This document shows positions 2,447 to 2,542 of a DNA stretch of 55,196 bases, in pieces. Under the pieces are notes generated by a model. It searched no databases. It was not told where the DNA came from and saw only the letters and a program-made list of their open reading frames with translations. The position numbers and the translations under genes are program-made. The DNA is from Girardia tigrina (taxonomy: Eukaryota). The DNA lies in NCBI GenBank assembly GCA_001938485.1, contig MQRK01222198.1, positions 1 to 55,196 of the forward strand. The letters run 5' to 3'. Position 1 is the stretch's first letter, and the number at the start of each line of letters is the position of its first letter.

Positions 2447-2542
2447 AGACAAAGAACCTTTTGGAGGTGACGCAGGCCGGCCGCAGATTGCAAGGGGCAC
2501 GCGGACGGACCGTTGTTTATCTCCTAGGGGCTCTCTTTGTCT
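2447..2542 (+). ncRNA. Conserved long stem-loop, copy A
   Basis: Pairings agacaaaga/tctttgtct, cctt/gggg, ggaggtga/ttatctcc, ccgc/gcgg, tgc/gca; homologous to 43550-43648. Confidence 0.6.

Follow-up and report, generated by a model that had tools for sequence, protein, structure and literature searches.

A conserved RNA hairpin in the long terminal repeats of a Burro-like Ty3/gypsy element of Girardia tigrina and its possible role in RNA packaging

Two long hairpins, 41 kb apart in a stretch of 55,196 nucleotides of Girardia tigrina DNA (the whole stretch is called the window hereafter), raise the question of what kind of RNA they belong to and what this RNA does. The sequence-only reading of the window had noticed one 22-mer in both and proposed compensatory changes between them. 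We find the 22-mer, AAGAACCTTTTGGAGGTGACGC, at 2452-2473 and again at 43556-43577, letter for letter. A BLAST search within the window aligned the two copies at 26 of 28 identical positions (E 3e-6). Folding the copies, we confirmed a long irregular hairpin in each. Copy 1 (2446-2543, + strand) is predicted to form 36-38 bp, with A/CUC and AG-N-A internal loops and a G-rich apical loop. Its fold reached -43.2 kcal/mol (z -3.5), and none of 200 shuffles was equal or better. In comparison, copy 2 (43550-43648, + strand) reached -29.2 kcal/mol (z -1.6), with 14 of 200 shuffles equal or better. The reverse strands folded at -34.7 and -21.5 kcal/mol, respectively. The proposed compensation held only in part. 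Two aligned pairs show a two-sided change with pairing kept (A-U to G-C and G-C to A-U), the other differences are mostly one-sided G-U swaps, and the outer basal stem is out of register between the copies. The compensatory case from the two window copies alone is thin.

The two loci had been treated as a pair; however, the 20-nt core of the hairpin has 223 exact matches in the genome. A pattern of the repeat end, passing only matches with G or C 21 nt downstream, gave 684 genome matches. The terminal 396 nt found 4,341 genome candidates, and the 40 of these that were scored, the window itself aside, showed 92-93% identity. The element end carrying the hairpin is repeated in hundreds of genome copies or more. 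The alignment used below was reduced from 148 copies (114 distinct) to 36 representatives below 85% similarity and, after dropping two chimeric rows, to 34; loci L010, L025, and L182 were excluded as truncated before the representatives were chosen. These 34 rows are 42-85% identical pairwise (median 64%). The 22-mer is unchanged in eight of them, although the initial search used the 22-mer as its query and thus favors copies that bear it.

Examining the borders of these copies, we found that they stop sharply at GGGGAACACGACA, about 375 nt past the core, and that the DNA beyond is unrelated between copies. Their left ends begin with TGTTAC, and the unit lengths are 1.4-3.4 kb. In the window, the unit spans 289-2828 (+, 2,540 bp), starts with TGTTACG, ends with CACGACA, and lies between 4-bp target-site duplications TTTA (TSD; 285-288 and 2829-2832, +). 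The empty site is seen in contigs of the runs X6 and X11, which join 289 to 2829. An exact 4-bp TSD stands beside TGTTAC in 10 of 21 sequences (the window and 20 loci), and one more has a single mismatch; the remainder are truncated copies or have their left end beyond reach. A purine run before the left end gave 56 matches against 18 in the control. Twenty-five of the 56 read RGGGAGGAA before TGTTACG, and seven more are one letter off. These 25 copies have common internal DNA upstream, which identifies the run as the polypurine tract (PPT) of a 3′ LTR. At the other side, the LTR end followed by the primer-binding site (PBS) TGGRGGCTCARCC had 28 matches and none in the reversed control. In these 28 places, TTTT and TGGGGGCTCAGCCGGGA come after the right end, the latter being complementary to tRNA-Pro(TGG) genes of the same genome (seven genes in four of four loci). 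We had considered a non-autonomous DNA transposon, as 100 listed places and 30 of 37 TGGYR loci showed no common sequence past the end, and dropped it on the PPT and the PBS. Thus, the unit at 289-2828 is a solo LTR, and its sense strand is +, because other copies have the PPT before the LTR and the tRNA-Pro PBS after it. The hairpin lies at a fixed distance from the LTR end, with the PBS about 285 nt downstream in 5′ LTRs. The 5′ and 3′ LTR junctions were observed at separate loci; contig C247209 has both, yet nested and mixed.

Copy 2 sits in an LTR fragment of another subfamily (43451-43685, +, about 235 bp) that matches contig C232409 at 93% over its span and has lost the two domains described below as II and III. 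Unrelated repeat DNA follows 43685, while its relatives L230, L241, and L244 run on into domain II. The flanks of the two hairpins had been called unalignable. They do differ: the two copies come from separate LTR subfamilies, and copy 2 has been truncated (match at 43451-43685 only). Near the left end of the window LTR, we noticed by eye a short palindrome, ATAGTC-N6-GACTAT (376-395, +), likely in U3, whose flanks stay complementary across subfamilies. The LTR was inserted into a broken reverse transcriptase (2833-3725, -) with GVAMGSPLAP and YVDD motifs, which we take to be of the Penelope-like family; Pfam gave no match on the one open piece of it that was scanned. The hairpin is not a part of this neighbor, the LTR being a separate insertion with a TSD and an empty site.

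We asked how well the fold is kept in the other copies. RNAalifold alone predicted a 12-bp central helix, with double changes at eight pairs. The 37-pair structure that we tested is the fold of window copy 1, applied to the 34 rows. In this structure, 83.4% of 1,238 cells pair and 25 of 37 pairs show double changes; further genomic copies, which the sequence-only reading had named as the check on its claim, thus keep the pairing. None of 500 shuffles reached the covariation score of the structure. Slid control structures paired in 43-51% of cells, an advantage for the tested structure that is partly built in because it was derived from these same sequences. Across the 34 copies, G-U cells outnumbered A-C cells (230 versus 73). 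Neutral decay after insertion is expected to yield both about equally, and so the excess of G-U points to selection on the + RNA. The earlier claim of selection on the + strand structure also agrees with the sense strand being + and with the + strand fold being stabler than the reverse in 32 of 34 copies. The shuffle z-scores were near equal on the two strands (median -2.6 versus -2.3).

Tests that respect relatedness gave a more reserved picture. Among 17 disjoint nearest-neighbor pairs of copies, there are 28 double differences, of which 17 leave a standard pair in place; slid controls give 0-6 of 14-26. The number of coupled arm changes was 28 double differences versus 22.6 ± 3.4 under partner shuffling, and 147 of 2,000 shuffles were as high (p ~0.07). 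By Fisher test, the coupling of the two arms gave a p of 0.009. The excess of coupled changes across the arms is modest, with the relatedness-aware test being the weaker. Only two predicted base pairs were found among the top 40 column pairs by MI-APC. The stem is well supported by the alignment as a conserved RNA helix, apparently kept mainly through G-U-tolerant change and short of formal covariation significance. In the predicted folds, GGG lies inside or closes the apical loop in 26 of 34 copies and is absent from this place in eight; the AG-N-A internal loop recurs in 31 of 34.

Other kinds of constraint and of hairpin were considered. Protein coding (EPFGGDAGR or RPASPPKGS in both copies) was rejected, since frame-shifting indels occur in the loop and the stem among copies. 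A hammerhead or a SECIS element was rejected because their core motifs are absent from the stem. The sequence-only reading had also offered a stand-alone pre-miRNA-like locus, in which the stem would be a Drosha/Dicer substrate yielding a small RNA. Pri-miRNA stems follow a size rule, and the 36-38 predicted bp come near that size; moreover, one arm is identical over 22 nt in both window copies. This identity, however, extends to only 8 of the 34 representatives in spite of the 22-mer-based first search, and both arms vary together instead of one arm being conserved. Rfam gave no match at E ≤ 10, and the target of a U5-derived small RNA would be the element that encodes it. We consider a miRNA precursor highly improbable, and the idea of a stand-alone locus is not supported for a hairpin at a fixed LTR position.

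Where the hairpin stands in the transcript depends on the LTR promoter and poly(A) site. CCAAT and TATAAATACCC (818-837, +) likely form the LTR promoter, and transcription would start about 30 nt downstream. Nine of 17 other LTR 5′ parts have a TATA motif like it, placed 565-947 nt from the left end in surroundings that are mostly unalignable. Of 47 upstream types (kept of 114), 20 have AATAAA at 20-60 nt ahead of the hairpin, compared with 8.4 ± 2.6 in a Markov null and 4-13 in other 40-nt windows, a contrast inflated because the 47 upstream sequences are related. The motif peaks 23-53 nt upstream of the hairpin. We compared 24 distinct copies that keep 85% identity or more across the terminal module: 11 are homologous far upstream, 8 break at 2434-2450, and 5 elsewhere. 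The eight represent about five upstream types, and the test covered matches starting up to 2479, so breaks inside the hairpin are outside its reach. The clustering of deletions and subfamily junctions at the 5′ edge of the hairpin fits an R/U5 border just before it. Judged from these motifs and junctions, the R/U5 border likely lies just 5′ of the hairpin, which would be the first of three U5 domains.

The sequence just ahead of the hairpin has a history of its own. A stub of a captured LDL-receptor-like host gene piece lies at 2330-2435 (+) and ends about 11 nt ahead of the hairpin, where a deletion cut it, whereas the sister LTRs L321 and L322 have about 900 nt of this piece ahead of the same hairpin. 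The deletion in the abundant subfamily of the window also removed the AATAAA that L321 and L322 keep. Pfam identified Ldl_recept_a (E 1.4e-8, L317) and cEGF (E 3.7e-5, L329). We observed LDLa/EGF cargo inside the LTR in several subfamilies (L321, L322, L320, L324, L327, L329, L337, and L338). The hairpin stands 0.9-1.3 kb downstream in 8 of 25 loci, and the subfamily of the window is a deletion derivative with about 100 nt left. Contig matches that end at 2435 with a loose end, from runs of unknown or guessed kind, were rejected as a sign of a poly(A) site because the longer LDL-receptor cargo accounts for them.

This position invites a reading in which the hairpin controls 3′-end formation. 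About 10-30 nt past the presumed cleavage site, it would hide or present the downstream U/GU-rich element, curbing premature polyadenylation in the 5′ LTR or helping it in the 3′ LTR, in the manner of the HIV-1 polyA hairpin. The AATAAA peak upstream in 20 of 47 types and the junction cluster at 2434-2450 speak for it, and so does the HIV-1 5′ polyA domain, which governs both RNA production and packaging (parts of PMC5961354); because that domain does both, a poly(A) role would be compatible with packaging. On the other hand, AATAAA lies outside the stem and so is not hidden, and 27 of the 47 upstream types have no AATAAA at that distance. The subfamily of the window lost the motif by deletion, yet it has many copies with TSDs. 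Conserved loop bases favor recognition by a protein over simple occlusion. On this balance, poly(A) control seems rather unlikely to us.

The hairpin is not alone at the LTR end. Comparing the last ~390 nt of the LTR in 37 representatives, we found three blocks with column identity of 0.72-0.95, separated by spacers of 0.40-0.59, with predicted helices in each block. The hairpin is domain I. Domain II (2595-2710, +; column identity 0.79-0.89) has two predicted hairpins and the 5′ strand of a terminal helix, and domain III (2753-2828, +) repeats the PBS start internally and supplies the 3′ strand of this helix. Both rest on column identity and pair counts. In the terminal helix, 2700-2710 are predicted to pair with 2816-2827. 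Pairing of 2607-2617 with the PBS-like motif or with the true PBS is possible at -9.5 to -15.9 kcal/mol in four of eight LTRs, with almost no double changes.

A wider primer-site search returned 216 matches (none in the control) and two sister lineages, B and C (L286-L313), that use the same tRNA-Pro. Lineage B shares domains II and III, and lineage C shares a part of them. In all 12 loci tested of lineage B, the terminal helix has swapped pairs and keeps the same shape, with a bulge of one base. The hairpin behaves otherwise. In its own lineage, it was found in 13 of 17 primer-site-bearing 5′ LTRs, the four misses being broken by unrelated DNA at or before domain II, while BLAST clustering gave no hairpin homologue in lineages B (13 loci) and C (5 loci). 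The best 100-nt folds at the hairpin position in B and C ranged from -15 to -32 kcal/mol, none of them equally stable. Lineages B and C may have a diverged structural equivalent of it. They carry other repeated motifs at the hairpin's place. In all three tRNA-Pro-primed lineages, we also observed a second copy of the PBS start, TGGGGGCTC (2781-2789 in the window), about 40-85 nt inside the LTR end. This copy might offer the tRNA a second contact or act as a decoy that tRNA fragments bind.

The sister lineages bear on another reading, in which the hairpin aids reverse transcription (minus-strand transfer or template switching) or translation on a long leader instead of packaging. The hairpin would stand at the R/U5 border, where subfamily mosaics join, and the long leader has several small ORFs. 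Against this, the minus-strand DNA makes the weaker fold because of the G-U bias, the sister lineages use the same primer without the hairpin, and the gag start is kilobases downstream. Such a role appears improbable.

What element do these LTRs belong to? Internal regions joined to them encode a gag with CCHC knuckles and the other domains in gypsy order. Pfam scans of L172, L175, L188, L190, and one ORF of C249044 gave the order gag, protease (PR), reverse transcriptase (RT), RNase H, and integrase. Further ORFs lie before gag and after integrase in the family; the one before gag is 34% identical between L191 and L271. The protein P0001, 93% identical to the RT ORF of L172, has the domain PF24664 in frame before PR and RT (E 7e-23), a fusion domain of Monjiviricetes type that is Env-like. 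In C249044 (RT 65% identical), capsid, knuckle, a ubiquitin-like part, the fusion domain, PR, RT, RNase H, and integrase lie in one frame of 4,142 aa. L188 and L190 make up the one element joined to a hairpin-type LTR, and in L190 only the end of the fusion region is readable beside an N gap. Because most of this domain falls in the gap, its link to the hairpin lineage goes through P0001 and sequence identity. A ubiquitin/SUMO-like domain (PF00240) was matched in L190 at E 9.5e-4, below the curated cut-off, with homologues in C249044, C246636, and C242717. PF24664 had 104 scored matches of 4,312 candidates, in at least two divergent groups. We also noted open frames of 2,300-4,100 aa with the fusion-glycoprotein domain in C249044, C246636, C242717, and C186892. 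The coding span of C249044 exceeds 17 kb and reaches neither LTR; in this fragmented assembly, we saw no full-length element of the hairpin lineage in one piece. The LTR comparison covers relatives closer than the Burro copies whose RT is 65-70% identical.

This domain architecture is the one described for Burro. Burro elements of dugesiid planarians are described as having gag, a ubiquitin-like part, a mononegavirus-like fusion domain, and then PR-RT-RH-IN, with upstream accessory ORFs, very many copies, long LTRs, an internal region of up to 25 kb, and a total above 30 kb (parts of PMC6431247). Judging by its domains, the host is a Burro-like Ty3/gypsy element with an Env-like fusion domain between gag and protease. 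It resembles Burro/GYPSM1 in the single long ORF with gag, ubiquitin-like, fusion (Env), and PR-RT-RH-IN parts, in accessory ORFs, in many copies, and in long LTRs. BIR, ankyrin, BCL2, MATH, and dUTPase domains were published from HHpred (PMC6431247, relevant parts); Pfam, as used here, matched none of them in 8 plus 17 ORF pieces scanned. The parts of PMC6431247 drawn on here treat proteins only and are silent on LTR anatomy, primer tRNA, and RNA structure. BURRO1 is expressed on PIWI loss in Schmidtea (PMC8532177, in part). The TE family that hosts the matches, asked for with the first reading, is an abundant Burro-like gypsy element, and the hairpin is one of three structured LTR domains; the first reading missed both.

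Our preferred reading, put forward tentatively and at somewhat less than even chance, is that the hairpin is a lineage-specific packaging determinant on the leader of the genomic RNA, bound by the element's own Gag. Transcription would start close to the TATA box that stands 550-950 nt inside the LTR, and the site of polyadenylation would fall just 5′ of the hairpin, which then opens U5. The genomic RNA would thus carry the hairpin at its 5′ end alone, contributed by the 5′ LTR. The CCHC knuckles of Gag would read the unpaired G-rich apical loop and the purine internal loops, while domains II and III would help the primer to anneal and reverse transcription to begin. Domains II and III recur in every tRNA-Pro-primed lineage seen, which most simply suggests priming. 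The hairpin is private to one lineage, keeps its shape, has a G-rich loop, and is probably at the 5′ end only, which most simply suggests recognition by a cognate protein. Gag is the obvious partner because it has CCHC knuckles and because unpaired guanosines bind Gag in HIV (parts of PMC9142903). Of the first options, the retroelement packaging or export signal, or protein-binding module, is thus supported as an option, and the first interpretation as a whole is supported in part.

Several observations weigh against packaging. The coupled double differences are only 28 versus 22.6 ± 3.4, and GGG is absent at the loop in 8 of 34 copies. The AATAAA beside the hairpin was lost in the window's own abundant subfamily, which makes the R/U5 border less firm. 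In addition, the core psi of HIV-1 stands immediately ahead of gag, on the 3′ side of the splice donor (PMC9142903, in part), while the hairpin is within the LTR, about 285 nt 5′ of the PBS and outside the span from splice donor or PBS to gag. Unpaired guanosines in conserved loops, another mark of psi, are present in the predicted folds (GGG in 26/34, AG-N-A in 31/34). We do not class the hairpin as a retroviral psi; by analogy, it may work like one.

A protein other than Gag could be the partner. The hairpin would then be a response element of an accessory protein, either a Rex/Rev-like export site in an intron-containing leader or, if transcription starts at the hairpin base, a TAR-like element. 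The family has ORFs of no assigned role before gag and after integrase, and the hairpin is lineage-specific, with a long bulged stem and fixed internal loops. By eye, TATAAA is seen about 27 nt before the stem in some subfamilies. Viral proteins bind RRE and RxRE, which are structured elements in the LTR or env (PMC9142903, in part). Yet Pfam gave no RNA-binding domain in those accessory ORFs that were scanned, the joints listed included none that was spliced with GT..AG ends, and a better conserved CCAAT-TATA stands 1.6 kb upstream. The RxRE is multi-branched, whereas the hairpin is a single stem. We hold a response element of this kind to be unlikely, and rather doubtful the specific claim that a Burro-encoded accessory protein binds the hairpin as a Rex/Rev- or Tat-like switch in an invertebrate gypsy-type provirus. 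If it were so, each lineage would place a private RNA address tag before a primer-handling core that all of them share.

Returning to the packaging reading, we compared the hairpin with known leader structures. Rfam 15 had no match at the gathering score over the whole window and none at E ≤ 10 over 2380-2900, so by covariance models it belongs to no previously described Rfam family, a comparison that had been asked for at the outset. A literature search with the exact sequence gave no paper, and the Burro LTR structure was not described in the titles and abstract starts listed; the original Burro description and Repbase may cover the LTR and PBS. A metagenome scan with the LTR end and PBS gave one match, which looks like bacterial coding DNA and is taken as chance. 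In HIV psi, unpaired G's are Gag-binding sites (parts of PMC9142903). The likeness to our element lies in 5′ leader stem-loops with unpaired guanosines near the PBS and in its CCHC knuckles. The difference is that one stem of about 98 nt is found here, inside the LTR and 5′ of the PBS, in place of a cluster of short stem-loops, with no sequence or Rfam similarity; Gag binding is proposed here by analogy. In Ty1, packaging signals lie within a structured 5′ end, the copia-type TIPIRT with a pseudoknot and kissing loops in the first 326 nt (PMC5454406, in part), whereas our hairpin would be about 1.6 kb past the presumed start and is predicted as a single stem. The HIV-1 polyA hairpin and the HTLV-1 RxRE are likewise LTR-encoded RNA structures, by a poly(A) signal or bound by a viral protein (parts of PMC5961354 and PMC9142903); here, AAUAAA lies outside a single stem, and no Rex-like protein was seen in the ORFs scanned. 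The hairpin joins a known class, that of structured cis-elements in the leaders of LTR retroelements. Since an LTR element is expected to have a structured leader, nothing here is new in principle. Burro elements, which are suspected to be proviruses, rank among the largest known retroelements, and the present data give an initial map of the RNA elements that act in cis in them: priming by tRNA-Pro, a structured LTR end of three domains, a pair-swapped terminal helix, and a lineage-specific hairpin. Dozens of natural hairpin variants make self-RNA recognition open to probing and binding assays.

The window has further features apart from the hairpin. In the left flank of the LTR (8-33, +), we noticed CTGAAGA, a 5-bp stem, and GAAA, presumably a minimal hammerhead-like core, with no Rfam match at E ≤ 1. 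A 161-aa open frame (44361-44846, -) has a glycine-zipper-like stretch at its end, and a tandem array of a 30-bp unit (49816-50094) has an open frame on each strand. Exons of a kinesin gene, which we assume to be kinesin-2, lie at 10080-10496 and 25835-26143 (+) with repeat-filled introns; the first matches Pfam Kinesin at E 3.5e-39.
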